64,000 bases of DNA from Promethearchaeota archaeon (GTDB lineage: Archaea; Asgardarchaeota; Lokiarchaeia; Sigyniarchaeales; SOKP01). Below the pieces are notes generated by a model. It had not been told where the DNA came from. It did not search any database and saw only the letters and a list, made by a program, of their open reading frames with translations. Positions 26,392-52,911 of the stretch are shown here, in pieces; positions within the stretch are counted from its first letter, which is position 1; each line of letters begins with the position of its first letter. A program made the position numbers and the translations under genes. The stretch is from the NCBI GenBank assembly GCA_019057865.1, contig JAHLWP010000010.1:18163-82162 (forward strand), in the 5' to 3' direction.

Positions 26392-27699
26392 TTACTTCTT
26401 AAAAAACTTTCGAGATTCCGAATCTCCTAAAATGTAATGACTTCCTCCACCATGTATCATACAATAAGCATCGAGAAGCCCAATTTGATTACAGTATTGT
26501 TCTGTATATCCCCGACCACCCATAGTTCTAAATAAATCAAGAGAAGTTTGAAATGCTAATTCACAAGTTTCAATTTTCAACCCCATTACCTGAGAAGCCA
26601 TTATTTTTGACCTTTCTAATTGTTGTTTCTTGTCAATTTCTCGAGCATAACTCATTAATGCTGAAAGATATATATTTACTTCACGCATATTCTTAGTAAT
26701 TGGAAATCTAATTATTTGATATTGATGTAATTTTCGTTGAAATTGTTCCCGCTGAATAGCAAAACTATGAGCATAAAATAATTTTTTAATACTATCTCCC
26801 AATGCTTCAGCACTAATTACTAATCTTTCTTCAGTTAATTGATGAAACATAATATCCAATCCATCTCCTCCAAGAAGGTTTGCTTTAGGGAGTTCAGCAT
26901 CATCAAATACTAAGCGACTGACAAATGCATCTCTCATCCCATAAGTAATTACCCGTGATGATTCAAAATTTTTCAATTGTTGATTTTCTGTATCTACAAT
27001 AATTGCTCCTAATCTTCCATTATCTAATCTACCATATAAACAAATATAATCTGCTAACATTCCATTTGTTATAAAAAGCTTCTTGCCATTTGCAATTATT
27101 TTATTACCTCTTTCTTCGAGTCTTAGTTCAATTCTAAAAACATCACTACCTGCAATAAATTCTGTCATAGCTGAAGCTGCCATTGCACCAGATTTAACAA
27201 CAGGATTCAAAAATTTATTTCTCTGATAATCATTAGCTTTATAATTCACTGGATTGCAATAAAGAGTTCCCCCTGCTAATCTACCCATTTCAATACTCCA
27301 ATTACCACCAATATACTTCTCACTATTTCTTGACCAAAAACCTCCACATAGGGCTAATGCTATAAGAGCATTTCGAGAAACGTTACCAATGTCATAATCT
27401 TCTGAATCAAAAATTGTACTGTAATAACTTTTTTCTGCTAATTTTTTCATAACATTAACGACAATTTCCCGTTTCTTCTCTTGTATCGGTTCTTCTGCCA
27501 AATAATTTAGTTCTTCTAAGGTCTTCAGGTCTGTTTCAAGATTTTCTTCCATGAAGTCATAAAATTCGGATAAAAATTCTTTCTCTTTAGCTGTAAATAT
27601 TGGGTTATTTAATAAGTCTAATTCAGTAATGTATCCGTTAATTTCAAGTTCCGGAAATTCTGGGAGTCTAGTATCCATAATAAATAAGACAATCTTCAT
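26392..27699 (-). CDS. acyl-CoA dehydrogenase family protein with ~90-aa N-terminal extension
   Basis: 'AMTEFIAGSDVF', 'NGKKLFITNG..ADY' middle domain, 'LTEERLV' (IVD-type catalytic Glu position), and C-terminal 'GGRGYT...LLDA'. Confidence 0.75.
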   Translation of the reverse strand: MKIVLFIMDTRLPEFPELEINGYITELDLLNNPIFTAKEKEFLSEFYDFMEENLETDLKTLEELNYLAEEPIQEKKREIVVNVMKKLAEKSYYSTIFDSEDYDIGNVSRNALIALALCGGFWSRNSEKYIGGNWSIEMGRLAGGTLYCNPVNYKANDYQRNKFLNPVVKSGAMAASAMTEFIAGSDVFRIELRLEERGNKIIANGKKLFITNGMLADYICLYGRLDNGRLGAIIVDTENQQLKNFESSRVITYGMRDAFVSRLVFDDAELPKANLLGGDGLDIMFHQLTEERLVISAEALGDSIKKLFYAHSFAIQREQFQRKLHQYQIIRFPITKNMREVNIYLSALMSYAREIDKKQQLERSKIMASQVMGLKIETCELAFQTSLDLFRTMGGRGYTEQYCNQIGLLDAYCMIHGGGSHYILGDSESRKFFKK

Positions 27700-27732: not shown

Positions 27733-28119
27733 TTATTTCCCATCTGAATACCTTTCGCTATATTCACTCCAACGACCTCCACAAAGAGCATAAGCTATAA
27801 GTGCATTTCTTGTAATTCTTCCAATTTTATAATCCTTTTTATTTAGTATGGTTGAATAAAATTCCTTTTCAGCTAGTTTACTCATAATCCTAACAACAAT
27901 TTCTTTCTTCTTCTCTTGATTTGGCTCTCCTACTAAATAATTTAACTCTTCTAATTTTCGTAATTCAATATTAAGTTCATTTTCCATAAAAATTTATAAT
28001 TCTGCTAATAATTTCTTCTCCTTAGCGTTAAGGATAGAATTGTTCAATAAATCTAATTCTGGAACATATCACTGTATACGAATAGCTTCAAATTCACTTA
28101 TTCTTGTGTCTATAATAAT
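27733..28119 (-). pseudogene. decayed tandem duplicate of the 5' ~480 nt of the adjacent acyl-CoA dehydrogenase gene
   Basis: One reading frame gives IIDTRISEFEAIRIQ*YVPELDLLNNSILNAKEKKLLAEL*IFMENELNIELRKLEELNYLVGEPNQEKKKEIVV...ALCGGRWSEYSERYSDGK*. It is collinear with residues ~7-160 of 26392..27699, has two in-frame stops, and then ends. Confidence 0.7.
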
Positions 28120-28272: not shown

Positions 28273-29694
28273 ATGATAAAATTTAGTGATAAGCAATTAA
28301 AAATCCCTAAATTAATGCGACCAGTTTATTTAGTTACAGCTGGAATGTCGAAGTTTGATCGTGCATTCCCAGAGACCCGAACAGAGGAACTTTGTATTGA
28401 TGCCCTTACTGCTGCTGCTGAATTTGTAAACATGACACCGACTGAACTCAAAAAGTTTATTCATACATGCTATTATGGACATTTCGCTGATCATTTTGGA
28501 GATCAGTTACTAGGAGAGGCTGTTATTCATGATAGGCTTGGATTGGATCCATTGGGAAATATTGGTGTAAAAACAGGAGGTGCAACAGGAGGTTCAGCTA
28601 TGTGGGAAGCTGTAAAAGCTGTAGCTTCAGGCTATAGCGATTGTGCGCTTGCACTCGGATGGGAGAGGATGGATGAAGTACCAACGGATGAGGGAAACCA
28701 TCTTATATCATGTGCTGCAGATAAAGATTGGGAAACACCATTAGGTCATATATATACGGGTTATTATGCAGTTATGGCACAAAGATATTGGAAGGTCTTC
28801 GGAAAGGAAGAACCGTCATTTCGAGACACAATGGCAGAAATTGCTGTAAAAAATAGAGGATATGCAAGAATGAATCCTCATGCTCAAGGACCAATGAAGA
28901 TCACCATTGAAGATGTTAAGAACTCTCCTATCGTTGCCTATCCTCTTCGTGCTTTAGATTGTTGCTTAATGAGTGTAGGAGCAGCATGTGGAATTGTGTG
29001 TGATGAAAAAACCGCATATGAGATAACAGATAAACCACTTAGGATCTATATAGCAGCAGGAAGTCATACATTACGAGTAGCCGATCGAAGAGATATGAAA
29101 ATACCTCTTTTACCAAATGAAAAACCAGGTTTATATGATGATTTAGGAAAACGATTTTCTGGAGGAGATAGATATCCTGGGTTCGCTAGTTTCTTAGCTG
29201 CTAGGATGTCCGCATACTATGCATATCATATGTCAGGGGTAAATGATCCTTCCGAAGATTTAGATTTAGTTGAACTACACGATGCTTTCACAATTAGTGA
29301 TATACAGACTTATGAAGATATAGGGATTCGACCATATGGTGAAGGAAGAGATTATATAGAATCGGGTGACGCTTATGTTATAAATCCAATTACCAAAAAA
29401 CCCGGTAAATTACCAAGTAATCCTTCTGGTGGATTGATAGGGTGCATGCATGCAGTAGGTGCAACAGGTCTAATGCAAATTGCCGAAATTGGCTATCATA
29501 TTTGGAACCGATGGGATGAGATCCACGAACCAGAAGAAAAATGGAAAAAATTTGATCGAGAAAAACTAAAAGATTGGACAAGTTTGCAAGTTAAGGGAGC
29601 AAAAAGAGGATTAGCTATTTCACACGCAGGTGTTGGTTCTCATGTAACATGTACTATTTTAATGAATCCAAATAATTTATTAAAGGAGGATTAG
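28273..29694 (+). CDS. SCPx-type thiolase-fold protein lacking both catalytic cysteines
   Basis: 'VKTGGATGGSAMWEAVKAVASGYSDCALALGWERM' aligns to the SCPx nucleophile loop with Gly at the Cys position. It has 'ELHDAF' instead of HDCF and 'NPSGGLIGCMHAVGATG' at the C-terminus. Confidence 0.8.
   Translation: MIKFSDKQLKIPKLMRPVYLVTAGMSKFDRAFPETRTEELCIDALTAAAEFVNMTPTELKKFIHTCYYGHFADHFGDQLLGEAVIHDRLGLDPLGNIGVKTGGATGGSAMWEAVKAVASGYSDCALALGWERMDEVPTDEGNHLISCAADKDWETPLGHIYTGYYAVMAQRYWKVFGKEEPSFRDTMAEIAVKNRGYARMNPHAQGPMKITIEDVKNSPIVAYPLRALDCCLMSVGAACGIVCDEKTAYEITDKPLRIYIAAGSHTLRVADRRDMKIPLLPNEKPGLYDDLGKRFSGGDRYPGFASFLAARMSAYYAYHMSGVNDPSEDLDLVELHDAFTISDIQTYEDIGIRPYGEGRDYIESGDAYVINPITKKPGKLPSNPSGGLIGCMHAVGATGLMQIAEIGYHIWNRWDEIHEPEEKWKKFDREKLKDWTSLQVKGAKRGLAISHAGVGSHVTCTILMNPNNLLKED
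29684..29690 (+). promoter_or_regulatory. Shine-Dalgarno-like AGGAGGA upstream of the 29699 ATG
   Basis: AGGAGGA lies inside the last codons of the upstream gene, 8 nt before the ATG. Confidence 0.5.
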
Positions 29695-29698
29695 AAAA

Positions 29699-30301
29699 AT
29701 GCCAAAAACAGAAGAAGAAAAAGGTTTTGTAGAGATTGTTAATAAAAGATATAAACCTAAAGGGACTTTTCATATAATCGAGGCAAATCAACCTATTTAT
29801 AATAAAGATACAGGAAAATTAGCAGGTGTTACAAACCCTAGAGATATGACATATATACATTCATATGGTAGAGAAGCAGTATTTTTCGAGTCTCTAGGTA
29901 AAGGAAGACTTATGGCTTCTAGATGTGATAATGAAAAATGTGAAACAAAAGGTTCAATTTATGAACCATTTAGGATTTTTTGCCCAGATTGCCTAAGAAA
30001 AAATACTGTAATTGATATTACTGAAAAAGCTCAGAAGACAGCAAAAATCCACTCATTTATTATTACTCATCGTTCTGGAGCTTTTAATACGCTACCAAAA
30101 CCAATCAAATTCATAAACGTTGAATTTGATGAAGAAGTAGTCACTATTCTTATGAGCGTGTTAGTTGTCGGAGAACCAGAAATGGGAAAAAGTGTTGTGC
30201 CAATCTTTCGAACCAAGAATCCAACCTATACAATTATGGATTTAATGTTTGTTGTTAAGGGTACACGCGAGTCAGAACTACCAGAGGGTTTTACATTTTA
30301 A
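29699..30301 (+). CDS. DUF35 Zn-ribbon/OB-fold protein
   Basis: The start lies 4 nt after the thiolase-like stop, with AGGAGGA 8 nt upstream. It has a 'CDNEKCE...CPDCLRK' Cys4 ribbon followed by an OB-like beta region. Confidence 0.7.
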   Translation: MPKTEEEKGFVEIVNKRYKPKGTFHIIEANQPIYNKDTGKLAGVTNPRDMTYIHSYGREAVFFESLGKGRLMASRCDNEKCETKGSIYEPFRIFCPDCLRKNTVIDITEKAQKTAKIHSFIITHRSGAFNTLPKPIKFINVEFDEEVVTILMSVLVVGEPEMGKSVVPIFRTKNPTYTIMDLMFVVKGTRESELPEGFTF

Positions 30302-30548
30302 TACTATTTTAAAATTTTTCTTTTTCTTATTCTTATTATTAATAATTTCGAATTTAAAATTTAAAAGTAAAAGCAAATTTAAGACCTAAGGGCAAAAGAG
30401 AAGGAACCTTAAAAGATATATTGTACTGGGAATAATTTAAATCATTTTTTATTTTTATTTCTTGACTTAGTTAAGTCTGATAATTTTAAGCTATTCAATT
30501 AATTTTAAACTGAGAATAAATAAAAAATAAAAATAAAATTTATTAATA

Positions 30549-31442
30549 TCATTGCTGATATAAATTAAAGATCTTTCTTGCCTCATCAGGAGTTGCAGGT
30601 TCACGATTTACTAATCTAGTTACCTTTGCAGCCCACTCTACTTGTTCCCAACTTCCTTTAGCTAATCTACCATCAGGCATGCGGATATTATCTTCTAATC
30701 CAACTCTTATATGTCCTCCCATTGCCGCAGCACATAGTGCTACTTGAAATTGTTGTTTAGCTACACCACAGACACTCCAACTAGCATCTGGAGGTCTTAG
30801 ATTTAGAAAGTGTCCTAAATTTTCAAGAGAAAACGGTACACCTCCTAAAATACCGAATACAAATTGAAAATGAAGGGGAGGATCTAAAAGTCTTTTTGGT
30901 TGCTGTTTTGCTAGATGTAAGATATTATACATACCCCCAAAATCATAAATTTCAATTTCAGGCTTAACTTGTGCCTTTTTCATGGCTTTAGCGAATTTTT
31001 GTATTGTATTGAATGTATTTGCGAATATAAACTTTGCGCCAAGCCCAACTTGTCCAGTTTTATGATCTCCTACTGCAAAATTCATTGAATTGGAATTTAG
31101 TGATGCTATTGGGGGTTTAAACGTTTCAACTGGTGCTATTCTCTGTTTAGGTGTAACAATAGTACTTATTGCAGTACTTAGATTAATTAAGATATCTGGT
31201 GCTTTTTCTTTGATATTATCAATTGCTGTTTTAATTATATCTAAATCTGCAACGGGATTCCCTTTTTCTGGATGTCTTACATGAATATGAACTATTGCTG
31301 CTCCTGCATCATAACATTTTTTTGCTTCATCACCAAACTCCTCCGCAGTATAAGGAACTGCAGGATTCTGGGATTTAATTGTTGCCGCTCCTGTAAGAGC
31401 AGCACTTATTACCAATTTATTTGATAAATCTTCCTCTGACAT
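30549..31442 (-). CDS. beta-keto acid cleavage enzyme (BKACE / 3-keto-5-aminohexanoate cleavage, DUF849 family)
   Basis: 'LVISAALTGAATIKSQNPAVPYTAEEFGDEAKKCYDAGAAIVHIHVR' and 'HIRVGLEDN' are hallmark BKACE TIM-barrel motifs. Confidence 0.85.
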   Translation of the reverse strand: MSEEDLSNKLVISAALTGAATIKSQNPAVPYTAEEFGDEAKKCYDAGAAIVHIHVRHPEKGNPVADLDIIKTAIDNIKEKAPDILINLSTAISTIVTPKQRIAPVETFKPPIASLNSNSMNFAVGDHKTGQVGLGAKFIFANTFNTIQKFAKAMKKAQVKPEIEIYDFGGMYNILHLAKQQPKRLLDPPLHFQFVFGILGGVPFSLENLGHFLNLRPPDASWSVCGVAKQQFQVALCAAAMGGHIRVGLEDNIRMPDGRLAKGSWEQVEWAAKVTRLVNREPATPDEARKIFNLYQQ

Positions 31443-31834
31443 TTTTATTACATTTTTAAATTTGATTTTGTAAATTTTAAATCAGATTACTACTGAAAAA
31501 ATAGATTTTCCTCCTATTAATATTTTTCATATTAATATTAATATTTTTTTTAATTGAGTTAAAGCTTATTAAGGATATAGAGAAATCCTATATTATCATT
31601 TATTTTTTAAAAAAATATTATTCCAATTAAAATCAAATAAATTGAATTTTCTTTTATTTATTATCTTTTTTAGTAGAATTATTAACTTAAAATAAGTTCT
31701 CCACTATGGAATCAAAAGAAACCTTTAGTTGTTTTTTTTTAAATCAGATATTTTTAGATAAATCATTTTCAAATTATTTTAAAACTATTTACTACTATTA
31801 ATAATATTAAAATTCATAAAACATTGAAATTAAA

Positions 31835-32299
31835 ATGAGTGAAGAAAAAGTAATTGTAGCTAATAAGGGGCTTGTTAGAGCTGACTTTGCCTTTTGGGTT
31901 GGTCAATACATGGATAGATTCTATGATGCTCTTGAAAATAAGAGATTTATTGGAAATAAATGTCCAGAATGCGGAAAGATTTTTGTACCTCCGAGAAAGA
32001 CTTGTGGAAAATGTAACAAAACAATCCCATTGGATAAAAACTGGGTTAATTTGCCTGAAACAGGGACCTTGCTAAATTACACTGTCACATATTATAAAGT
32101 AAATGAGAGAACTACTCGAAAAGTTAAAAAACCTCAAATAATTGGCATGATACAAATTGATGGTAGCAATACAGGGATAGTATATCGTCTTTTAAATGTA
32201 GATCCTGATGATGTCAAAGTTGGAATGAAAGTTAAAGTAGTGTGGGAAGAAAAAACAAAAGGAGACCCTTCAGATATTAAGGGTTTCACGAAACTATAG
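31835..32299 (+). CDS. DUF35 Zn-ribbon/OB-fold protein
   Basis: 'CPECGKIFVPPRKTCGKCNK' rubredoxin-like ribbon and a following OB fold ('GMIQIDG...GMKVKVVWEE'). Confidence 0.8.
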   Translation: MSEEKVIVANKGLVRADFAFWVGQYMDRFYDALENKRFIGNKCPECGKIFVPPRKTCGKCNKTIPLDKNWVNLPETGTLLNYTVTYYKVNERTTRKVKKPQIIGMIQIDGSNTGIVYRLLNVDPDDVKVGMKVKVVWEEKTKGDPSDIKGFTKL

Positions 32300-32300
32300 T

Positions 32301-32307
32301 AGGAGGT
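32301..32307 (+). promoter_or_regulatory. Shine-Dalgarno-like AGGAGGT upstream of the 32317 ATG
   Basis: AGGAGGT lies 9 nt before the ATG, in the 17-nt gap after the DUF35 stop. Confidence 0.5.
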
Positions 32308-32316
32308 AAAAAGATT

Positions 32317-33459
32317 ATGCAAAAAGTAGGTATTGTAGGGTATAATCAAGTAAAGTTATATTCAGATGCAAATTATGGGAGGTATGAAATGATTTTTGAA
32401 GCTGTACGAGGAGCATTAGATAGTGCAGGACTGAAAAAGAAAGATATAAGCACAGTGATATCGGCTACTAATGATTATTATGATGGGCGTACTATATCAA
32501 ATGCGTTAACTGTGGAACCTGGAGGAGGATACTTAGCAGATGAGTCAAAAGTTGAGATGGATGGAGCTCATGCTGTTTTATATGGATTGATGCGCATTTT
32601 ATCTGGAAATCATAAACTTGCTGTAGTTTGGGGTGGAAGTATGGCATCATGCTTTCCCTATCATTCTGCTCGATTATATGAGACTGATCCTACATGGGAG
32701 CGTCCAGTTGCTTATGTTAATGATATATCTGCTGCTGGGTTTCAGATGAGGGCTTATATGGAAAAATTTGGAGTAATTCCTGAGGATATCGCTAAGATTG
32801 CTGTTAAAAATAGAAAAAATGCTACTAAAAATCCTCTAGCGTTAGCTGAGGCTCAAAATCCTAATTTAACAGTTAAAGAAGTATTAGAATCGGAAATTTA
32901 TGCTGATCCTATAAAAGAATTAATGGTTGCTCAACCTTGTGATGGTGTTGCCGCATTACTTTTAGCCCCTGAAAAACAAGCATTAAAGATTATAGATAAT
33001 CCAGTTTGGATTACAGGTGTAGGATATAATCAAGAAACTTATTATCTTGGAGATAGAGATTTATTTAAAAGTAAATCTATGGAATTAGCAGGTAAAATGG
33101 CGTTTAGTGCTGCTGGAATCAAAGATCCTAAAAATGAAATCGATGTAGCTGAGTTATTTGAAGGTTATGCACATGAGGAATTGATTTTTACTGAAGCTTT
33201 AGGATTTGTAGAGAAAGGACAAGGAGCAAGTTTAAACTCTGAGATAAATGGGGATCTACCCATCAATCCTTCTGGTGGAGCACTTGGAGGGAATCCGCCA
33301 TGTGCAACAGGTTTAATAAGAATTATTGAAGCTGTAAAACAACTTAAAGGAGAGGCAAATGATTATCAAGTTAGTGGTGCCAAGAAAGCTGTTGTTTCAG
33401 GGCAAATAGGGATGTGTGCACAAAATAATATAGTATATGTATTGGAGGGTGGTAATTAA
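32317..33459 (+). CDS. thiolase-fold protein, divergent (no nucleophilic Cys, no C-terminal His)
   Basis: 'VEMDGAHAVLYGLMRILSG' occupies the nucleophile loop. 'AELFEGYA' replaces HDCF, and 'NPSGGALGGNPPCATG' replaces GHPxGATG. Confidence 0.75.
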   Translation: MQKVGIVGYNQVKLYSDANYGRYEMIFEAVRGALDSAGLKKKDISTVISATNDYYDGRTISNALTVEPGGGYLADESKVEMDGAHAVLYGLMRILSGNHKLAVVWGGSMASCFPYHSARLYETDPTWERPVAYVNDISAAGFQMRAYMEKFGVIPEDIAKIAVKNRKNATKNPLALAEAQNPNLTVKEVLESEIYADPIKELMVAQPCDGVAALLLAPEKQALKIIDNPVWITGVGYNQETYYLGDRDLFKSKSMELAGKMAFSAAGIKDPKNEIDVAELFEGYAHEELIFTEALGFVEKGQGASLNSEINGDLPINPSGGALGGNPPCATGLIRIIEAVKQLKGEANDYQVSGAKKAVVSGQIGMCAQNNIVYVLEGGN

Positions 33460-33461
33460 AT

Positions 33462-34709
33462 ATGGGAAGACAAGTATGTATTGCAAGTGCAGGATTTAGT
33501 GAGCATGCTTCTAAGCGCTCCGATGTAAGTATGCCTGAATTAGTGAGTGAAGCAATAGAAGATTGTTTAAAAAGAGTTCCTAGTGTTGATATTAAAGATA
33601 TTGATGCTTATGTAAATGGTAATATGCCTGCATTTGAAGGTTCAAATATTCCGGAATTATGGATGACTGATTGGATGGGGGCTAGAAACAAACCACTAAT
33701 GAGAGTTACAACAGGAGGAACTACAGGAGGTTCTGTAGCTATTTCTGGATATTATTCTGTTGCTGCTGGTTTACCAGGTGTTGATACTGTGTTAGCTATA
33801 GCTTTTGAACAACAATCTCAAGGAGACACTAGTGTAGGGCTTGCTAGCACAGCTTATGGAGAAATATCAGTTATGAACTCGTTAGGTATTCCTTATGATC
33901 AATTAACCCTTCTTTTTTCTGCTGGTGCAGCAATAGGAATTGCTTCTTATCAAGCTACTAATTATATGCGCAAAAGTAAAATTACAGAAGAAGATTTAGC
34001 AAGAGTAGTTGTTCAAAATAGACATAATGCGGCAAAAACATGGTGGGCTCATTTAAAAATGCCTAACCTCACAATTGAAGAAGTATTAGATACTCCATAT
34101 ATTTCATATCCTTTAAGATATGGAATGGTTTGTCCAGCTTCTGATGGAGCCTGTGCAATGCTCTTTACAACCGAGGAAAAAGCTAAAGATATGAGTGATA
34201 TTCCCGTTTATGTTAATGGAGTGGGTAGTATTGCAACTGAAACTGCTCTTATTGGTTTTAATGGTAGTGGATCAGGACAACTAGACCTTTCTGAGCAATT
34301 AGGTGCTCAAAAGACTTCTGAATTAGCCTTTAGACAGGCAGGTGTTTCTTTTCCAAGGAAAGAAATTGATTATGCTGAGGTATATTCACCATTTCCTAAC
34401 CAAGAGCTTATGTGGGTTGAGCAATTAGGTCTATTCGAAGAAAATACAGCTCCTAATATGTATGAGACAGGGGTAACTGCCTTAAATGGTGAATTACCCG
34501 TGAATTGTTCTGGTGGTGTCAATTCTACAAATGCTATAGGAGCATCGGCAATGGAAAGACCTGCTGTTGCTGCCTTACAAATTATGGGGGAAGCAAGTAA
34601 TCAAGTTCCCAAGACGGTCCATACTGCTTTAGGACACGGATGGGGCGGGTATGTTAATTTAGTAACAATGATGGTTATGGCAGATGAGCCAACCAGAAAA
34701 CTTAGGTAA
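33462..34709 (+). CDS. thiolase-fold protein, divergent (no nucleophilic Cys, no C-terminal His)
   Basis: 'VTTGGTTGGSVAISGYYSVAAG', 'AEVYSPFP' and 'NCSGGVNSTNAIGASA'. The start is 2 nt after the preceding stop, with GGAGGGTGG upstream. Confidence 0.75.
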   Translation: MGRQVCIASAGFSEHASKRSDVSMPELVSEAIEDCLKRVPSVDIKDIDAYVNGNMPAFEGSNIPELWMTDWMGARNKPLMRVTTGGTTGGSVAISGYYSVAAGLPGVDTVLAIAFEQQSQGDTSVGLASTAYGEISVMNSLGIPYDQLTLLFSAGAAIGIASYQATNYMRKSKITEEDLARVVVQNRHNAAKTWWAHLKMPNLTIEEVLDTPYISYPLRYGMVCPASDGACAMLFTTEEKAKDMSDIPVYVNGVGSIATETALIGFNGSGSGQLDLSEQLGAQKTSELAFRQAGVSFPRKEIDYAEVYSPFPNQELMWVEQLGLFEENTAPNMYETGVTALNGELPVNCSGGVNSTNAIGASAMERPAVAALQIMGEASNQVPKTVHTALGHGWGGYVNLVTMMVMADEPTRKLR

Positions 34710-34714
34710 AATAT

Positions 34715-34721
34715 GGAGGAG
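34715..34721 (+). promoter_or_regulatory. Shine-Dalgarno-like GGAGGAG upstream of the in-frame TTG at 34729
   Basis: Read directly: ...TAA AATAT GGAGGAG ATATAAA TTG. Confidence 0.45.
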
Positions 34722-34728
34722 ATATAAA

Positions 34729-35259
34729 TTGTCTAAAAGAACGTTAAGAAAAACAATGGATTATGTTAAAAAAGAATATAAAAGAACTAGAATAATGCCA
34801 GCTAGTTGGTATTTATCCAGTTATAACTTTAAATTTAATATTGCTCATATGAAACCATTTCTTGAAAAATTGAAACAAAAAAAGTTAGTCGGTTTGCAAT
34901 GTTCAAGTTGTAATAGAGTATTTTTTCCGCCTCGCCAAGTCTGTGGTAAATGTCTTGTTAAACCAGATCGTTGGGTAGATTTACGTGAAACGGGGAGAGT
35001 AGCTTCATACACTATAACTTATTTAAAAGATCCCGAAAGTGGTGAAGTTTTAGAACGACCAATTATCTGTGCACAATTAGATGGGGCAGATACGTCATAC
35101 CCAGCAACATTAAGTCCTGATGTTGAATTTAAGGACACATATATTGGAATGCCTATAAAAGTTCATTGGGCAGAAGATATTAGCGGTGGTATGATGGATA
35201 TTGAATATTATGATTTAACTGAAGATGATGCCAAAGATTTAGAATTACGTAAGGAATAA
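34729..35259 (+). CDS. DUF35 Zn-ribbon/OB-fold protein (probable TTG start; the ORF track's ATG is at 34684)
   Basis: 'CSSCNRVFFPPRQVCGKCLV' ribbon plus OB fold. GGAGGAG at 34715..34721 sits 7 nt before the in-frame TTG at 34729. The 34684 ATG would overlap the upstream gene by 26 nt. Confidence 0.75.
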   Translation: MSKRTLRKTMDYVKKEYKRTRIMPASWYLSSYNFKFNIAHMKPFLEKLKQKKLVGLQCSSCNRVFFPPRQVCGKCLVKPDRWVDLRETGRVASYTITYLKDPESGEVLERPIICAQLDGADTSYPATLSPDVEFKDTYIGMPIKVHWAEDISGGMMDIEYYDLTEDDAKDLELRKE

Positions 35260-35325: not shown

Positions 35326-36381
35326 CTATAAAAATTTTACAAGTACTTTTCCTATTGTCGCAATGGTAAATTTTATATCATCCTCATTTATTCCATAATG
35401 AGTAACAAACCGAATTCTATGGTTAAAATTGAAGGTTTTAATTCCATTTTTATAAAGTTCAACCATCAATTTATCCATTGGTATTTTTAGTGGAAAATCT
35501 ACCCAGAAAATATTTGTTTCTGGCTGTTGAACTTTAATTGAGAACTCAAGATTCTTAAGACCTTCAGCAAGAAATTTAGCATTCTTATGATCCTCCTCCA
35601 GTCTTTTTATCCATTTCGGTTCAAGTGCTATTAAACCAAAACATGCAATAACTCCAGCTTGTCGCATCCCTCCTCCTAACATTTTTCGATATTTTCTTGC
35701 TTTTTCAATAAAATCGTATGACCCAGCAACAATAGAACCAACTGGACACGAGAGACCTTTGGATAAACAAAACATAACACTATCAACATGTTGAGTAAAA
35801 TCTGAAGCAGGTCTGTTAAGCGCTACCGAAGCATTAAATAATCTTGCACCATCAAGATAGAATTTTAAATCATTTTTCCCTGCAAATTCCTTCATTTTAT
35901 AAAGATCTTCAGGTTTGATTATAGTTCCTCCATGAAAATTATGAGTATCCTCAGCACATAAAAGAGTTGTTGGAGGTTCATGAATATCTTCTTTATCTCG
36001 AATCAATTCTTGAAGTTCATCTAAGTTTGGCATAGCTTTATTTGATGAATAAGTACAAATCATTAATCCTCCGATTCGAGCAGCACTTCCTACCTCATGA
36101 CCATAAATATGACTAAGTTCCTCAACCATTATTTCATCTCCAGGTGTGGTTTGAGATAATAAAGAAACAAGGTTTCCTTGTGTTCCTGAAGTGACAAATA
36201 ATGCTGCTTCTTTTCCAACTATCTTTGCTGCTTTATCTTCCAACTCATTAACAGTTGGATCTTCTCTTTCAACATCATCACCTATCTTTGTATTATCCAA
36301 CGATTTAACTACTTCCCACATTTCGGGAGATGGTTTTGTTACAGTATCAGAACGGAGATCAACAATTTTCATTTTAATCAA
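35326..36381 (-). CDS. ltaE: low-specificity L-threonine aldolase (PLP-dependent)
   Basis: 'DLRSDTVTKPS..M', 'VTSGTQGN', 'GARLFNA' and 'LSKGL..PVGS' (PLP-Lys) form the typical LtaE pattern. Confidence 0.85.
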   Translation of the reverse strand: MIKMKIVDLRSDTVTKPSPEMWEVVKSLDNTKIGDDVEREDPTVNELEDKAAKIVGKEAALFVTSGTQGNLVSLLSQTTPGDEIMVEELSHIYGHEVGSAARIGGLMICTYSSNKAMPNLDELQELIRDKEDIHEPPTTLLCAEDTHNFHGGTIIKPEDLYKMKEFAGKNDLKFYLDGARLFNASVALNRPASDFTQHVDSVMFCLSKGLSCPVGSIVAGSYDFIEKARKYRKMLGGGMRQAGVIACFGLIALEPKWIKRLEEDHKNAKFLAEGLKNLEFSIKVQQPETNIFWVDFPLKIPMDKLMVELYKNGIKTFNFNHRIRFVTHYGINEDDIKFTIATIGKVLVKFL

Positions 36382-36953: not shown

Positions 36954-37706
36954 TTACAAACCTGGAATTCCTGTCCGTTTGTGGATGATCTCCAGTATCT
37001 TGGTGATAAATGTGATTGTAATTAAAAAGATCATAGTTGTAAGGACGTATGTAGTGAGTGGATAAAACGTCTTATGAGCGATAACGTCTGCCTGAAAAAA
37101 TAATTCCTCCACTCCTCCAATAAAATAGATAAGGACAGTATATTTTGGAAGATAAGCAGCTTCATTGGACCAAGCAGGGATAACACGGCGCAAAGCTTGT
37201 GGTAATACGATATGGTGAATACTAGCAATACGTGACATTCCCAGCGAGCGTGCAGCTTCTAATTACCCAGTTCCAACAGAAATAATGGCTCCACGGAGAT
37301 ATTCAGCTTGATAAACCGCACTATTAAGACTCAGCGTGAGTATACCCACAAATATTGGGTAATCCATAAGCTTCAGAGTGATGTCTCTATCTAGCATTCT
37401 AAAGCTAGTCTTTAAACTCCAACTTCCAACAGGGATATTTAAGCTAACGGGAAGAAAATAAATGAATAATAATTGCGCGAGCAAAGGTGTACCACGTATA
37501 ATCTCAATGTACCCAGTAGCAATCCGTGAAAGAATCCTCCCTCCGTACTGGCGAAGTATGCTAAGGATAAGACCAAGCAAAAAGCCCATCAAAAGTGCGC
37601 ATCCATACAACCACATCGTCAATAAAAAACCTGAGAAGATATGATCCCAGGATTTCAGTACAGCAAAAATTTCCTTAATGGGGTTGGGACTAGCTTGAAA
37701 TATCAT
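36954..37706 (-). pseudogene. amino-acid ABC transporter permease, interrupted by one in-frame TAA (paralog of 40713..41462)
   Basis: The two track ORFs (37263..37706 and 36954..37238) are collinear with the intact permease. This copy reads 'ISVGTG*LEAARSLGMSRIASIHHIVLPQ' against intact 'TSVGTEQLVAAQSLGMSRRAGIVHIVLPQ'. The stop codon is at 37260..37262. Confidence 0.75.
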
Positions 37707-44083: not shown

Positions 44084-44455
44084 TTAATTTGCTTTTAAAA
44101 CTAATGTTATAGCTCTCGTTAAACGAATAATATCCATTACTTTACCTTTCTCTACATTAATTTCTTCACGACTAATGGCATGCGTGAAATCACCTTTTCC
44201 ATTACAAATTTTAACGATTGAATTAGGATCTCCAGACATAACAATAACTGAATCTGATTTGGTCCCTTCTAACAAAATTGCTTTGCGGTTTTTAATATCT
44301 ACATAAAAAGGGTCTTCAATATCAAGGTTGAATTGAAATGACATTTCCCAATCAACGTCCTTCCCAGCAATATTAGTTACAAAAACAACTTGAGCTTTTT
44401 CATTTTGGTTTATTTTTTCAATAATTTTTGTTAAATTATCTCTTGCTATACCCAT
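44084..44455 (-). CDS. SCP2 (sterol carrier protein 2)-like domain protein
   Basis: 123 aa. 'VIVMSGDPNSIVKICNGKGDFTHAISREEINVEKGKVMD' resembles the SCP2 C-terminal helix/strand pattern. GGAGGG lies upstream, with a 2-nt gap from the DUF35 stop. Confidence 0.6.
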   Translation of the reverse strand: MGIARDNLTKIIEKINQNEKAQVVFVTNIAGKDVDWEMSFQFNLDIEDPFYVDIKNRKAILLEGTKSDSVIVMSGDPNSIVKICNGKGDFTHAISREEINVEKGKVMDIIRLTRAITLVLKAN

Positions 44456-44457
44456 TT

Positions 44458-44952
44458 TTACTTCCCTCCTTCATATTCAGGTTTATTAATCCAGTTTTCA
44501 TATTCATCTTCTGGAACAAAGAAGAAATCTGTCATTTTCCCTTCTCTTACTTTGTTAAAAACAGCTCTAACTCTTCTTCCTTTTTTAATCTTAGAAGGAA
44601 CTAAATTTTCTGAAAAAATTCCTTGAAGTAATGCGGTTTCTGCTCCATCTAATTTTATAAAGCCTATACTATAAGGTACGGCTTTTATAAATGCAGAAGT
44701 TGTATACCATACAATTGTGCTAACTTCTATAGTTCCTGTTTGGTTCAATTCTACCCATTTAGCAGGAGCAAAACAATCAGAGCAATTGATCCTTGGAGGC
44801 ATCCATGTCTTTCCACATTTAGTACATTTTGTGCCCAATAGTTTTTTATTTTTCATTAATTCTAAAAAGAATTTGGATTGTCCTCCCATTGTGTATTTGT
44901 AGTTGATCCTTATTACATCTCTTATTTGATGCTCCTGAAATTCTTCGCTCAT
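44458..44952 (-). CDS. DUF35 Zn-ribbon/OB-fold protein
   Basis: 'CTKCGKTWMPPRINCSDCFA' ribbon plus OB fold. ATGA overlap with the upstream thiolase-like reading frame. GAGGAGGGG lies upstream (44964..44972 on the + strand). Confidence 0.8.
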   Translation of the reverse strand: MSEEFQEHQIRDVIRINYKYTMGGQSKFFLELMKNKKLLGTKCTKCGKTWMPPRINCSDCFAPAKWVELNQTGTIEVSTIVWYTTSAFIKAVPYSIGFIKLDGAETALLQGIFSENLVPSKIKKGRRVRAVFNKVREGKMTDFFFVPEDEYENWINKPEYEGGK

Positions 44953-46298
44953 GGTTTTTTCAACCCCTCCTCATTTGTCATTACTATAACCGCAGCATAT
45001 GCCGCTCCAGGGCCTCCTATTGAGTGAGCAATAGCTCTGCCATTTTCAATTGTTTTTATTTGATGCTTTCCAGCATCCTCTCTAAGCTGAAGTGCTGCTT
45101 CACCTGTAGACATTATCCCGGTAGCACCAACAGCATGACCACATCCAATTAATCCACCGCAAGGGCAACATGGTAATTCACCATCTAACCATGGCCCCTC
45201 CCCTGGTTTTTCAAAGGATTTTTCAATCCATGGACCACCTTCCCCAAAAGGAACAAACCCAAGCTCCTCATAAGAGATGACTTCTTATCCAGAGAATATC
45301 GAACTGATATTCATTGTCCTGAGAAGGCATCATGGAGCTCTGCTAAATCAATTTGTTCCTTTATTTTATTATAGTCTAAGCCTGCCATCTTATACGCGGC
45401 TTTTGCAGCAAAAATATTTGAATATAACCTTCCCATATCTTCTCTATTTCCTATAAAACAATCGGTATTTGCTGCTGCGACACCAGTAATCCAAATCGGC
45501 TTTTCAATTTTTAATTCTCTTACTTTTTCTTCACTTGCGAGAATTAATGCTGCTGATGCTTCTGAATATAAACAACAATCAAGCATCTTGAAGGGATGAC
45601 AAATTATCCTTGAGTATAGGACATCATCTAAGGAAATTTTCATAGGGGATTGTGCTTTTGGATTGAGCATAGCATTCCCATGGTTTTTTACGCTAACTTT
45701 AGCCAATTTTAACTAATTGTTAAGATTTAAAGCCATTTGTTCTTCGGTAGGATTACCGAATTCTTCATAATGGGCGTTTACCATAGAAACGTACGAGGTT
45801 GCTGCCATCATTCCCATAGGATATTTACGAAATATGTAGAACTTACACCATTTTTTCGTAAGTCATATCAGTAGAATAGGCGATGGCATTCAAAACTTCA
45901 GGTGTCGTAGTTCCTGTTTGTTCGTCATAGCAATCATTGCATTTTTCGACTCCTATACATAAACATAAGTCAGATAAGCCAGAAGCTACTTCTGCAAAAG
46001 CCATTCGGACAGTATATCCTCCTGTTGCTCCTCCTGTTGCTATACGAGTACCAGGTTTATTATTCATCCCTATATAGGAATTACAAAAAATATCTGGCAT
46101 AAATTGTCTTTCAAATAGCTCATTATAGATTCCATATACCGTAGATTGTAAATCCTTATGAGTTATTTCAGCACCGTTATTATTTGCGTCCTCAAGTGCT
46201 AATTTTGTTGCATCATATGCTAATTCAAAATATGTCTTATCTAAATACTGGGCTTTAAAAGGAGTAATTCCTATACCTATAATCGCAACTTTCTTCAC
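44949..46298 (-). pseudogene. SCPx-type thiolase-fold gene broken into at least three frames
   Basis: The N-terminal piece (45843..46298, 'IATGGATGGYTV') ends at a frameshift in an A-run (GAAAAAATGG). The middle piece carries an in-frame TAG inside a 30-nt insertion. 'ELHDAFSGQ*' is followed by further stops. The C-terminal piece ('GGLIGCGHAVGATG...VMTNEEGLKKP*') has no start of its own. Confidence 0.65.
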
Positions 46299-46465
46299 AT
46301 TTTTTCACATTTTATATTATTTTATGTTTTTTGATATTAGATATATTTATTATATATTCTTTTCCAATTTTTTTTAGAGAGTAAATCGTTAAAAGTTTAA
46401 ATCTTACATTATTTAATTCTATAATTGTATTATAATTAACAGTTTGTTAACAAAAGTGAAAAAAA

Positions 46466-47500
46466 TTGGTTTTAGAGACAAATATAACTGAAATGTTAGG
46501 AATTAAGCATCCAATTGTTGGAGCACCTATGGGACCTTTTTATACAACTGAATTAACGGTAGCAGTATCTGAAGCGGGAGGATTAGGAGTTTTAAGTCAT
46601 ACTAATTTATTCGGTAAAAGCAGTACTGAAGAAATGAAGAAAAATATGGAATATGTTATTGAACATACAGATAAACCTTTTGGTTTTAATATTAGAACAG
46701 CAAGGATGCAAATGGATGCTATAAAACTTTGTAGAGAAATACCCAAGTTCATTATGAGCAAACCAAAATTAAGGGAACAGGTAAGATATGCAATAACTTC
46801 TGCTGGTTCCGCTCGTATGTTGCTAAGAAGTAAAAATTACCAGAAATTAAAAGAAGTGTCTGATATCAGAAATTTCCATGTAGCTCCAGCATTTTGGTTA
46901 GCTAGAAAATGCGTAGAGGCAGGAGTTGATGGGCTTGTAGTAACTGGATTTGAAGGGGGTGGTCATCAATCATATGAGAAAACATCTACCTTAGTTTTGA
47001 TTCAACAGGTAAAACAAGCATTTCCTGATATTCCCATAATTGCATGTGGAGGATTTGCAACGGGTGTAGGGCTTGCTGGAGCATTAGCAATGGGAGCAGG
47101 AGCGATAGCTATGGGAACTAGATTCATTGCATCAAAAGATAGTGAATTTCATGAAAATTATAAACAAATTGTAGCTCCTGCGAAAGCTCCTGATACAACA
47201 GTAGTCACAGGATTTATAGCTCCAATAAGATTATGGAAAAATACATACACATCCCATCATGATACTGTGAAAAATAAAAATGAGAAACTCGTAAAGGAGA
47301 GTGAAATGTTAATACAAGATTTGCTTATTGATCAAAAGAATTATGAAATGGTATATGAAGGGTATATAGAAAATAGTGCTGTTCCTTTAGGTCAAAGTTG
47401 TGGTATAATCAATAGTATCGATAATGTAAAAGATATTATTGAAAATATAGTAAAAGATGCAGAAATTTACCTTAAAAATTCAAATAACTTTATAAAATAA
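46466..47500 (+). CDS. nitronate monooxygenase / FabK-like FMN-dependent enoyl reductase family protein
   Basis: 'ITEMLGIKHPIVGAPMG...AVSEAGGLGVL', 'GFEGGGH' and 'GAGAIAMGTRF' TIM-barrel NMO motifs. TTG start, or the ATG 9 codons downstream. Confidence 0.8.
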   Translation: MVLETNITEMLGIKHPIVGAPMGPFYTTELTVAVSEAGGLGVLSHTNLFGKSSTEEMKKNMEYVIEHTDKPFGFNIRTARMQMDAIKLCREIPKFIMSKPKLREQVRYAITSAGSARMLLRSKNYQKLKEVSDIRNFHVAPAFWLARKCVEAGVDGLVVTGFEGGGHQSYEKTSTLVLIQQVKQAFPDIPIIACGGFATGVGLAGALAMGAGAIAMGTRFIASKDSEFHENYKQIVAPAKAPDTTVVTGFIAPIRLWKNTYTSHHDTVKNKNEKLVKESEMLIQDLLIDQKNYEMVYEGYIENSAVPLGQSCGIINSIDNVKDIIENIVKDAEIYLKNSNNFIK

Positions 47501-52085: not shown

Positions 52086-52868
52086 ATGTCTCTAAAAGAT
52101 CTCGATATCGGAGAATACATTGAATTTAATGTAAAGAAGAGATTTGCAATAATAACACTTAATAGGGTTCATAGATCAAATGCATTTACAATTGAGCAAT
52201 TAAGATTCTTAAAAAAAGCAATAGAATATTGTCAAAATTCAGAAAAAATTCGAGGTTTAATCCTAACTGCAAATGGAACAACTTTTAGTACAGGTATGGA
52301 CTTGGATTTTATTGATGGTAGTGATCATAATGCTGTAAAAGACCTTGAGAGAACTGCTGCTGAGATTTGTATGTTATTATTTAATGGAAAGCCTGCGATT
52401 GCGGCTATAAATGGCCGTTGTTTAGGTGAGGGTGTTGTATTTCTTTTATGTTGTGATTATAGGATAAATGTTAAAGACACTTATTTCCAATATCCTGAAA
52501 TCTTTTCTGGTATTTTTCCGGGTACAGGTTGTATAGTATTAATGACTAGAATTATCGGGATTCCTTGGACAAAAAGGATGTTAATGCTAGCTGAAAAGAT
52601 TAGCTCTGAAAAGGCGTTAGAAATTGGGTTAATTGATCAAATAGTTGATTCCAAAGAAGAATTGATGCAAGCTGCTATTGATAAGGCAAAATTTCTCTTT
52701 CCTAAAAATCAAACTGTTCTTAATGCTATTAAATTGTGTTCAAATCATTTACTTGATAAAATTTATCATAAAGCTTACGAATTAGAAAAAGAGGCTTCAG
52801 GGTGGTTTGAATATGATAATAAAAATAAATTCATAAGTGATTTTAGAGAAAAGTTATCATCATTATAA
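52086..52868 (+). CDS. enoyl-CoA hydratase/isomerase (crotonase) family protein, paralog 1
   Basis: 'ITLNR..RSNAF', 'TFSTGMDL', 'AAINGRCLGEG' and 'YPEIFSGIFPGTG' crotonase oxyanion-hole blocks. Only the second canonical Glu (PE) is evident. Confidence 0.8.
   Translation: MSLKDLDIGEYIEFNVKKRFAIITLNRVHRSNAFTIEQLRFLKKAIEYCQNSEKIRGLILTANGTTFSTGMDLDFIDGSDHNAVKDLERTAAEICMLLFNGKPAIAAINGRCLGEGVVFLLCCDYRINVKDTYFQYPEIFSGIFPGTGCIVLMTRIIGIPWTKRMLMLAEKISSEKALEIGLIDQIVDSKEELMQAAIDKAKFLFPKNQTVLNAIKLCSNHLLDKIYHKAYELEKEASGWFEYDNKNKFISDFREKLSSL
52602..52767 (+). repeat. near-identical block shared with 53428..53593
   Basis: By eye there are ~4 mismatches in the first ~134 nt. It encodes SSEKALEIGLIDQIVDS(K/Q)EELMQAAIDKAKFLFPKNQTVLNAIKLCSNHLLDK in both genes. 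Confidence 0.8.
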
Positions 52869-52911
52869 TTTTAATGATATTGAAAAGAAAAAAAAGTGAA
52901 AAAGAATAAAA

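Follow-up and report, generated by a model that had tools for sequence, protein, structure and literature searches.

In a stretch of 64,000 nucleotides of contig JAHLWP010000010.1 (GenBank assembly GCA_019057865.1, positions 18,163 to 82,162), which comes from a Promethearchaeota archaeon of the Lokiarchaeia and is called here the window, we show that every gene of the thiolase fold has lost the cysteine nucleophile and that each of these genes is coupled to a gene for a DUF35 protein (zinc ribbon and OB fold). Three of the genes, named here thlA, thlB and thlC, are intact and the fourth is a decayed copy. To judge from their sequences, the intact genes are functional members of their families and not degenerate thiolases. 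We propose that thlB and thlC encode a DUF35-linked retro-aldol complex and that thlA encodes a non-covalent, enolate-type C-C enzyme, a reading to which, taken as a whole, we give about an even chance of being right. The thiolase-fold loci and their DUF35 partners are as follows, with positions counted in the window.

28273-29694 (+): thlA, A-type, 473 aa; Pfam Thiolase_N and Thiolase_C_1
29699-30301 (+): divergent DUF35 protein (zinc ribbon and OB fold), partner of thlA, 200 aa; matches 6esq_E
31835-32299 (+): DUF35 protein, 154 aa, first gene of the DUF35-thlB-thlC-DUF35 cassette; Pfam zf-ChsH2 and OB_ChsH2_C, CxxC...CxxC ribbon
32317-33459 (+): thlB, B-type, 380 aa; loop KVE---MDG, FEGY, Asn326
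33462-34709 (+): thlC, C-type, 415 aa; Gly86, YSPF, Asn357
34684-35259 (+): second DUF35 protein of the cassette; Pfam zf-ChsH2 and OB_ChsH2_C
44458-44952 (-): DUF35 protein, 164 aa, partner of the decayed copy; CxxC...CxxC ribbon, weak BbsA match
44949-46304 (-): decayed A-type copy in three fragments (45843-46298, 45311-45706 and 44949-45284)

A phmmer census over all six-frame open reading frames (ORFs) of the window found exactly these four thiolase-fold loci and no fifth. The catalytic positions were read from HMMER alignments to solved thiolases and from MAFFT alignments, which were concordant, with Cys85 of the M. thermolithotrophicus thiolase 6ESQ (in the motif EAACASG) taken as the reference nucleophile. 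At this position thlA has Gly103 (codon 28579-28581), thlC has Gly86, the decayed copy has a glycine as well, and thlB carries a deletion of three residues. The equivalent of the HDCF loop reads HDAF in thlA (His336-Asp-Ala338-Phe), FEGY in thlB, YSPF in thlC (Tyr308-Ser-Pro310-Phe, the codon of Tyr308 being 34383-34385) and again HDAF in the decayed copy, and thlA (His393) and the decayed copy (which reads IATGGATGG, HDAF and GCGHAVGATG at its three motifs) have retained the histidine of the GHP loop, where thlB (Asn326) and thlC (Asn357) have an asparagine. An initial annotation of this DNA, made from the letters alone, had claimed that both catalytic cysteines are gone in all four genes, had placed a glycine codon at 28579-28581, and had listed the same HDCF replacements and the same distribution of histidine and asparagine in the GHP loop; all of this is borne out by the alignments, and every motif string that it quoted is present in the sequence.

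The motifs described as canonical for DUF35-associated thiolases are CxS, HDxF and GHx (PMC12960953), of which HDxF and GHx are matched by thlA and the decayed copy and are not matched by thlB and thlC. HDAF as a sign of inactivity was considered and rejected, since the proven thiolase BbsB (7PXP) and the P. furiosus protein PFC_04095 (7YVY) both read HDAF and keep the nucleophilic cysteine, and the loop is for this reason not diagnostic. As the alignments have it, the decisive loss is that of the nucleophile. With no nucleophilic cysteine the acyl-enzyme intermediate of Claisen thiolysis or condensation is impossible, and from the aligned residues we regard canonical covalent thiolysis or condensation as excluded for all four genes. 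It follows that none of them is a true acetyl-CoA acetyltransferase, a function that the same annotation had called unlikely; its expectation that automatic pipelines would call them so is correct for JGI/IMG, where the name 'acetyl-CoA C-acetyltransferase' is used, but not for NCBI, which names the homologues 'thiolase domain-containing protein', 'thiolase family protein' or 'hypothetical protein'.

The coupling of a DUF35 gene to each thiolase-like gene, likewise noticed from the letters, is real and conserved. Spacing within the window ranges from -4 to +17 nt: the stop codon of thlA lies 4 nt ahead of the start of the DUF35 gene at 29699, a gap of 17 nt separates the DUF35 gene at 31835-32299 from thlB and one of 2 nt separates thlB from thlC, the second DUF35 gene of the cassette overlaps or abuts thlC, and the one at 44458-44952 overlaps the end of the decayed copy by 4 nt. 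The ORF at 34684-35259 was counted from its first ATG; its orthologues are 174-176 aa long, and its true start is probably about 45 nt further downstream. All four DUF35 proteins are stand-alone and 154-200 aa long, and three of them are above the Pfam threshold for zf-ChsH2/OB_ChsH2_C. The partner of thlA is below it (OB_ChsH2_C only, E = 0.0095); it matches the DUF35 chain 6esq_E with E = 2.4e-4 and a window DUF35 protein by BLASTP at 3e-8, and it has a four-cysteine ribbon. The Hodarchaeota orthologue of the 44458 protein carries both Pfam domains.

Outside of the window the divergent DUF35 gene is found directly downstream of thlA in all 76 related loci that have room for it. Two bacterial thlA loci gave apparent fusions of this partner to an acyl-CoA dehydrogenase (ACAD), which were rejected as artefacts of out-of-frame ORFs, the partner gene being found there by tblastn. 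A thlB-type gene stands immediately upstream of the C-type gene in 29 of the 30 C-containing cassettes, with one intervening ORF in the other, and two DUF35 genes accompany the B/C pair in 26 of the 30, in the layouts 'B C d d' and 'd B C d' (d for DUF35); the DUF35-thlB-thlC-DUF35 cassette is conserved in Loki-, Thor- and Hodarchaeota. The initial annotation had asked whether the clade is conserved and always DUF35-linked, which is so for the thlA pair and somewhat less constant for the number of DUF35 genes at the B/C pair. Physical association is supported by DUF35 fusions, namely a double-DUF35 protein in Streptomyces and a thiolase-DUF35-DUF35 protein of 731 aa (P0333). Among the collected homologues the only fusions that could name a partner enzyme are those to DUF35 and one chimera with a 2-hydroxyglutaryl-CoA dehydratase D-component, and no fusion to a hydratase was found. 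The chimera (P0329, 358 aa), in which the thiolase C-terminal domain is joined to the dehydratase domain, is either a real fusion or a mis-assembly.

The three intact genes are under strong purifying selection: the ratio of non-synonymous to synonymous substitutions (dN/dS) against orthologues is 0.03 for thlA, about 0.09-0.12 for thlB and 0.05-0.08 for thlC, and across 120 homologues of each the motifs of thlA and thlC vary little or not at all. The 80 thlA-centred loci that we examined hold 142 full-length thiolase-fold ORFs (80 A-type, 30 C-type and 32 B-type), and a cysteine at the nucleophile position occurs in none of the 142.

The copy at 44949-46304, on the other hand, is genuinely broken. 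Compared by tblastn with an intact Hodarchaeota orthologue of 413 aa, it aligns as three pieces in two frames at 84-94% identity, with at least two frameshifts and two in-frame stops; the intact orthologue is likewise Cys-less, with the signature G-H-A-H. This copy and its DUF35 gene belong to a conserved block together with a 123-aa ORF at 44084-44455 (-), which has no Pfam or NCBIfam match, and a FabK/NMO-like flavin mononucleotide enzyme at 46466-47500 (+), which scores 186 bits, less than the cut-off, to the enoyl-ACP reductase FabK. Synteny of the block extends to a Hodarchaeota contig (L007, 13026-16399) in which the thiolase-like gene is intact. Elsewhere in the window an amino-acid ABC permease gene at 36954-37706 (-) is cut into two ORFs by an in-frame TAA at 37263-37265, just ahead of the conserved 'EAA' loop (G-T-G-*-L-E-A-A-R-S-L-G), and its orthologue aligns through the stop in one frame. 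This TAA and the broken thiolase copy suggest some gene decay or base-level assembly errors in the genome.

To place the genes among their relatives, homologues of thlC were collected from 1.84 billion representative proteins and aligned, and a neighbour-joining tree of 120 sequences was built without bootstrap. It has four groups: true thiolases, with the signature C-H-C-H or C-H-A-H; an A clade with G-H-A-H, which holds thlA and the orthologue of the decayed copy; a C clade with G-Y-(P/A)-N; and a B clade marked by the three-residue deletion in the nucleophile loop. Among 54 clusters of the C clade at 50% identity the glycine is present in 51, the tyrosine in 38 and the asparagine in 47, and entropy at the catalytic positions is 1.6-1.7 bits for this clade versus 2.6-3.7 bits for the B clade, in which these positions drift even among close orthologues of thlB (F/Y and N/H/Y). 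Such constraint in C beside nearly free positions in B fits a catalytic C subunit and a structural B subunit.

The homologues nearest to the window genes, at 85-95% identity, come from metagenome-assembled genomes of Promethearchaeota (Lokiarchaeia), and the guess of an Asgard-like host made from the letters was right. The families themselves reach much further. In a species-representative genome set 521 stretches match thlA; about 65 of the best 80 are Asgard, and thlA-type proteins at about 79% identity occur in Thermoplasmatota, Neomarinimicrobiota (Marinimicrobia), Bacteriovoracaceae, Leptospirales, Spirochaetes, Deltaproteobacteria and Krumholzibacteriota, with A-type relatives in Methanolliviera, Atabeyarchaeum and Njordarchaeum. 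Orthologues of thlC above 82% identity are found in Asgard only, and the C clade as a whole extends to Streptomyces, Actinomycetota, Dehalococcoidia and other Lokiarchaeia; the B clade includes Syntrophales, Bathyarchaeia and Acidiferrobacterales. As read from the alignment and the tree, the genes belong to three ancient clades within the DUF35-associated (SCP2/archaeal-type) thiolase fold, all of them Cys-less. The idea of a single repurposed family confined to an Asgard-like archaeon has therefore to be given up on both counts: the clades have distinct active-site signatures, and thlA pairs and B/C relatives are present in Bacteria and in other Archaea. Nor is the family wholly undescribed, as it had been supposed, for there are the NCBIfam models PRK06365, PRK08313 and PRK07937, the structures 4YZO and 4U4E and the precedent of Ltp3-Ltp4; the families are old, widespread, already modelled and provided with a bacterial genetic precedent. 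Against these models thlA scores 679 bits to the equivalog PRK06365 (cut-off 695), its residues 1-466 covering profile positions 1-429 of 430, thlC scores 356 bits to PRK08313 (cut-off 514) and thlB 190 bits to PRK07937 (cut-off 419). In comparison with DUF35-associated true thiolases (6ESQ, BbsB), thlA has about 80 extra residues in two insertions.

For the thlB/thlC cassette an aldol-lyase is the best-supported reading, and from sequence an aldolase is a plausible one. The characterised Cys-less thiolase-fold enzymes are retro-aldolases which need a DUF35 partner, namely TcLtp2-ChsH2, CtSal-Shy and Atf1-ChsH4 (PMC12329534, PMC10398937). The catalytic residues are Y294DHF and Tyr344 in TcLtp2 and Y302DC304Y, with Gln352, in CtSal; the YDCY loop of CtSal has been equated with Y294DHF of TcLtp2 and with HDCF of SCP2-thiolases, and its tyrosine is essential (PMC12329534). 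We derived the equivalences for thlC from an HMMER alignment of thlB with CtSal (9MYR), from a joint alignment and, for TcLtp2, from the motif equivalences of that paper. The HMMER alignment sets FEGY of thlB under YDCY and Asn326 under Gln352, and in the joint alignment Tyr308 of thlC corresponds to Tyr302, the catalytic base of CtSal, Pro310 to Cys304 and Asn357 to Gln352.

A heteromeric system of this kind is also on record: Ltp3-Ltp4 has been described as an aldol-lyase that actinobacteria require to degrade sterol side chains branched at C24 (Wilbrink et al. 2012, cited in PMC6678751, PMC6593523 and PMC6273163). In Mycobacterium tuberculosis the conserved hypothetical gene Rv3521 is followed by ltp4 and then ltp3, and echA19 and fadD19 are close by (PMC6429209). 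A Streptomyces cassette in our collection runs EchA19-like enoyl-CoA hydratase (ECH), double DUF35, a B-type PRK07937 protein (563 bits) and a C-type PRK08313 protein (706 bits), the last two falling in our B and C clades; the EchA19-like ECH scores 371 bits (cut-off 400) and passes PRK07799. As this cassette mirrors the mycobacterial order and shows the B and C signatures, we infer that our B clade is the family of Ltp4 and our C clade that of Ltp3.

What we propose on complex formation, residue roles, substrates and direction of reaction is deduced from the observed residue identities, conservation, gene linkage and fold. The products of thlB and thlC and the two DUF35 proteins would form one heteromeric complex, homologous to the actinobacterial Ltp4-Ltp3 pair with its double-DUF35 protein. 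The active site would be given by thlC, with Tyr308 acting as a general base on the beta-hydroxyl and Asn357, together with backbone amides, polarising the thioester and stabilising the enolate, and thlB would be a structural partner, probably a non-catalytic one. This complex may act as a retro-aldolase that splits a 3-hydroxyacyl-CoA, supplied by an ACAD and an enoyl-CoA hydratase, into a short acyl-CoA and an aldehyde or ketone, and the substrate probably has a tertiary or otherwise non-oxidisable beta-carbon of the sort handled by Ltp2, Sal and Ltp3/4.

The gene thlA and its divergent DUF35 partner would constitute a separate, ACAD-linked module of two genes. Two active-site histidines of SCP2-thiolases form the oxyanion hole for the thioester enolate, and both are kept in thlA (His336 and His393), which makes a non-covalent enolate-type C-C reaction on a CoA ester likely, though less certain than the role suggested for the B/C pair. 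As thlA has both thiolase histidines and no tyrosine, the aldolase analogy does not settle its chemistry, for which the candidates are a retro-aldol reaction, a hydrolytic retro-Claisen cleavage and a decarboxylation. Further histidines are invariant in the thlA clade (GHFADHF, SHAGVGSH); they are a lead and not evidence.

Further genes of the window are listed here.

26392-27699 (-): ACAD-like gene, divergent to thlA; Pfam Acyl-CoA_dh_M and Acyl-CoA_dh_1
30549-31442 (-): gene for a beta-keto acid cleavage enzyme (BKACE), situated between the thlA module and the thlB/thlC cassette; Pfam BKACE 3e-92
35326-36381 (-): GntG-family / low-specificity threonine aldolase-like pyridoxal phosphate (PLP) enzyme; NCBIfam GntG_guanitoxin 359 bits, cut-off 230
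52086-52868 and 52912-53688 (+): two tandem ECH (crotonase) genes; Pfam ECH_1 and ECH_2

An ACAD homologue adjoins thlA in 68 of the 80 loci, 6 of them bacterial or non-Asgard, and a BKACE gene is present in 48 Asgard thlA loci and also near the Syntrophales B/C cassette (L090, 1848-2771). The best NCBIfam match of the window BKACE, a family of beta-keto acid and acetyl-CoA chemistry, is Kce at 263 bits (cut-off 382), and its match to 3,5-dioxohexanoate:acetyl-CoA acetone transferase is below the cut-off too. Directly upstream of the window ACAD-like gene an 84-aa ORF at 27733-27987 (-) repeats residues 50-132 of that gene's product with 63% identity and looks like a partial tandem duplication or gene remnant. 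Bacterial thlA loci have in addition a putative XRE-cupin regulator and, in some cases, an acyl-CoA ligase. In Bacteriovoracaceae, Leptospirales, Spirochaetes and Deltaproteobacteria (L079-L081, L085 and L087) a conserved protein of 180 aa, by the look of its sequence an XRE-type helix-turn-helix and cupin regulator, precedes the thlA-DUF35 pair, and a butyryl-CoA-dehydrogenase-like ACAD follows it. Such an arrangement suggests a small-molecule-inducible operon, which may be usable for finding the substrate.

Asgard B/C cassettes adjoin genes for ACAD, AMP-forming acyl-CoA ligase, ECH, FAD oxidoreductases and a PLP aldolase, the ECH genes lying directly beside the cassette in three Asgard loci (L004, L006 and L008) as well as in Streptomyces (L089). 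The Syntrophales cassette has the order ACAD, MaoC hydratase, B, C, DUF35, CoA-transferase, ACAD. A gene for 3-hydroxyacyl-CoA dehydrogenase was found in none of the neighbourhoods of the Asgard (L004, L006-L008), Streptomyces and Syntrophales cassettes. Two ECH genes and two acyl-CoA ligases are located in the window 12-20 kb away, and the tandem pair at 52086-53688 is a possible candidate for the hydratase partners. In all the Asgard loci examined (the window, L004 and L006-L008) the gene of the GntG-family PLP enzyme runs towards the B/C-DUF35 cassette in convergent orientation, so that a second aldolase-type enzyme is encoded beside the putative aldol-lyase.

Several observations weigh against the proposed roles. 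No hydratase gene stands directly beside the window cassette, the nearest ECH being about 17 kb off, and about 30% of the C-clade clusters carry Phe, Gln or His in place of the tyrosine. Position by position thlC departs from the known aldolases, with Pro310 for Cys304 of CtSal and His296 of TcLtp2, and Asn357 for Tyr344 of TcLtp2. In both phmmer and Foldseek comparisons true thiolases and ST0096 are closer matches of thlA and thlC than Ltp2 and Sal are. The equation of PRK07937 and PRK08313 with Ltp4 and Ltp3 is one that we infer from gene order, from the naming as 'lipid-transfer protein' and from the EchA19-like neighbour; the Streptomyces pair passes the curated cut-offs of these two models and thlB and thlC are below them, and the aldol-lyase role of Ltp3-Ltp4 is, as described (PMC6678751, PMC6593523), genetic and not enzymological. 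For the archaeal members the aldolase role is thus deduced from sequence, and in thlA a base residue is putative at most.

It would be logical to ask, then, whether these proteins act as enzymes at all. They may be pseudoenzymes, scaffold or regulatory subunits of DUF35-mediated acyl-CoA complexes in which an ACAD, a hydratase or a true thiolase encoded elsewhere does the catalysis, as PhlA/MucA and the HMGS unit of a Pseudomonas complex are kept in DUF35 complexes with no catalytic residues (PMC6392133, PMC12960953) and as Sulfolobus DUF35 proteins gather several pathway enzymes into one complex (10.1101/2024.07.05.601840). The unconstrained catalytic positions of the B clade agree with this, but the active-site positions of A (His/His) and C (Gly/Tyr/Asn) are strongly conserved, both subunits are Cys-less in every B/C cassette so that the unit has no catalytic thiolase partner within it, and an identity of about 79% across domains, as seen for thlA, would be unusual for a mere scaffold; we consider the explanation unlikely, without dismissing it. 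Quite unlikely, too, appears some other non-covalent chemistry on CoA esters, be it decarboxylation of the malonyl- or beta-ketoacyl type (modelled on Cys-to-Gln ketosynthases), hydrolytic retro-Claisen cleavage, isomerisation, or the acyl-CoA or lipid binding that the name 'lipid-transfer protein' implies. In its favour, thlA differs from the HDAF-type thiolases BbsB and PFC_04095 essentially by Cys to Gly, with both histidines kept, its clade-specific invariant histidines lie in loops near the active site, and BKACE, an enzyme acting on beta-keto acids, is a conserved neighbour. However, there is no precedent for it among thiolase folds of the SCP2 type that have a DUF35 partner, every Cys-less member characterised so far being an aldolase (PMC12329534, PMC10398937), and the context of ACAD and hydratase suits the cleavage of a hydroxyacyl-CoA better.

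That the proteins are still thiolases or acyltransferases, using a non-canonical nucleophile (a Cys, Ser, Thr or a residue of DUF35) or a direct attack of CoA with no acyl-enzyme, we hold to be highly improbable. In sequence and fold they are closest to true archaeal thiolases, a conserved Thr and Ser flank the glycine (KTGGATGGS), and the DUF35 partners carry four cysteines; the flanking Thr, however, corresponds to the conserved Ser of the CxS motif and not to the nucleophile, the DUF35 cysteines make up the CxxC...CxxC zinc ribbon, and the other cysteines of thlA are at non-catalytic positions which are Cys in true thiolases also, such as the 'CC' before the SDG motif. In the PhlC homologue the change of the nucleophilic Cys to Ala or Ser abolishes activity (PMC6392133). 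Gene decay or sequencing error, which the frameshifts and stops of the 46-kb copy and the in-frame TAA of the permease gene might bring to mind, is accepted by us for the copy at 44949-46304 only. As a general cause of the Cys-less state its probability is next to nil: the dN/dS values of 0.03-0.12 refute it for the three intact genes, identical residues recur in hundreds of independent assemblies, and the intact orthologue of the decayed copy is Cys-less as well. The retro-aldol complex for thlB/thlC and the enolate-type enzyme for thlA are hence the roles which we prefer.

The label acetyl-CoA C-acetyltransferase (K00626-type), which is routine in metagenomes for these proteins, cannot be right, and it is unsafe to count such genes as thiolases or as genes of fatty-acid synthesis. 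A recent preprint reports pairs of ketothiolase and DUF35 genes in 67% of screened Asgard genomes, with a mean of 3.8 per genome, and takes them to favour the synthesis of fatty acids by the archaeal relatives of eukaryotes (10.1101/2024.07.05.601840). With a nucleophile in none of the 142 thiolase-fold genes at the conserved locus, such counts need a filter on active-site residues. We may even suggest, as a long shot, that the multiple B/C cassettes of Asgard archaea get round the dehydrogenase and thiolase steps of beta-oxidation by a route of hydratase and aldolase, allowing breakdown of beta-methyl-branched (isoprenoid-derived, archaeal-lipid-type) acyl-CoAs, whose 3-hydroxy intermediate is a tertiary alcohol and not oxidisable by a dehydrogenase, and, at once with this, that thlA/DUF35 is an unrecognised cofactor-independent acyl-CoA C-C lyase or ligase, coupled to ACAD in a pathway common to hundreds of anaerobic and marine lineages. 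Should the two suggestions both be right, the majority of the Asgard 'ketothiolase/DUF35 pairs' would be uninformative on fatty-acid synthesis. The thlA/DUF35 pair is among the most conserved uncharacterised CoA-ester modules common to Archaea and Bacteria, and the B/C cassettes bear on the question of thiolase-fold aldol-lyases as a general answer to non-oxidisable beta-carbons beyond steroid catabolism.

Among known systems Ltp2-ChsH2 was the first to be invoked for these genes, and the analogy holds in part. Like Ltp2 and Sal, thlC has the thiolase fold, a glycine for the nucleophilic cysteine, a DUF35 protein as partner (obligatory in those enzymes) and a tyrosine opening the HDCF-equivalent loop, at the position of the catalytic base; with Sal it also shares an amide residue at the GHP position (Gln352 in Sal, Asn357 in thlC). 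The analogy is also helped by related loci, in which ACAD and hydratase genes occur and a 3-hydroxyacyl-CoA dehydrogenase gene does not. The full catalytic pair of Ltp2 or Sal, however, is present in none of the genes. The first-loop tyrosine is replaced by His in thlA and Phe in thlB and in thlC stands in the context Y-S-P-F and not YDHF or YDCY, the second residue is absent from thlC (Asn357/Pro310), thlB (Asn326/Gly283) and thlA (His393/Ala338), and the motif YD[HC][FY] occurs in none of the 453 collected homologous proteins. Besides, Ltp2 and Sal are homodimeric whereas thlB and thlC are a B/C heteropair, and the DUF35 proteins of the window are not fused to a MaoC hydratase, as ChsH2 and Shy are, and resemble the stand-alone ChsH4 (PMC10398937). 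The score of thlC is 42 bits to Ltp2 (6OK1) versus 128 bits to 4YZO, and phmmer and Foldseek alike place true thiolases and 4YZO well ahead of 6OK1 and 9MYR.

Structural models, which the initial annotation had recommended as a check, gave a confident thiolase fold and no discrimination between thiolase and aldolase. The AlphaFold2 models have pLDDT values of 92.9 (thlA) and 89.5 (thlC), and Foldseek matches them to 6ESQ, 7YVY and 4YZO with template-modelling (TM) scores of 0.86-0.94, the best fold match of thlA being 6ESQ/6ET9 (TM 0.91-0.93); since thiolases and aldolases all match at TM 0.75-0.94, fold does not tell them apart. With 6ESQ, its best match in both sequence and fold (E = 3.7e-35, TM 0.93), thlA shares the fold subfamily and the DUF35 partnership, and with BbsB the HDAF loop, but both of these are proven thiolases with a nucleophilic Cys where thlA has Gly103, and no HMGCS-like third subunit is encoded near thlA. 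PhlABC (5M3K) and MucABC (9VBO) are stapled by DUF35 and retain PhlA/MucA with no catalytic residues (PMC6392133, PMC12960953), which offers a model for thlB, with the difference that PhlC/MucB keep the catalytic Cys and that the inactive subunit is HMGS-like and not thiolase-like. Two Cys-less SCP2-type thiolase-like structures have no function assigned, ST0096 of Sulfolobus tokodaii (4YZO) and the 'putative thiolase' of Sphaerobacter (4U4E, which reads YDSF). The former, cited only as a structural neighbour (PMC6392133), gives thlC its best sequence match in the PDB and has both histidines, as thlA does (NTSGSGG / HDMA / GHP); by this signature it is nearer to the A-type, yet in our tree it clusters near true thiolases.

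The likeness to the Ltp3-Ltp4 type goes further. Here, too, an adjacent pair of thiolase-fold paralogues stands beside one or more DUF35 genes and an ECH gene, the layout DUF35-thlB-thlC-DUF35 of the window fits this pattern and Streptomyces has the same one, the B-type loop 'VEMDGA' is common to thlB and the Streptomyces PRK07937 protein, and the C-type signature Gly / Y-x-P-F / (S/T)-N is common to thlC and the PRK08313 protein. The differences are that thlB and thlC are, by their scores, no more than distant relatives, that the window has two stand-alone DUF35 genes where Streptomyces has one double-DUF35 protein, and that the host is an Asgard archaeon in whose locus nothing suggests a steroid substrate. 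By this comparison the closest precedent for thlB/thlC would be Ltp3-Ltp4 rather than Ltp2, and the window genes are, on their sequences, best regarded as new, uncharacterised members, from an archaeon, of the group of Cys-less thiolase-fold/DUF35 lyases.

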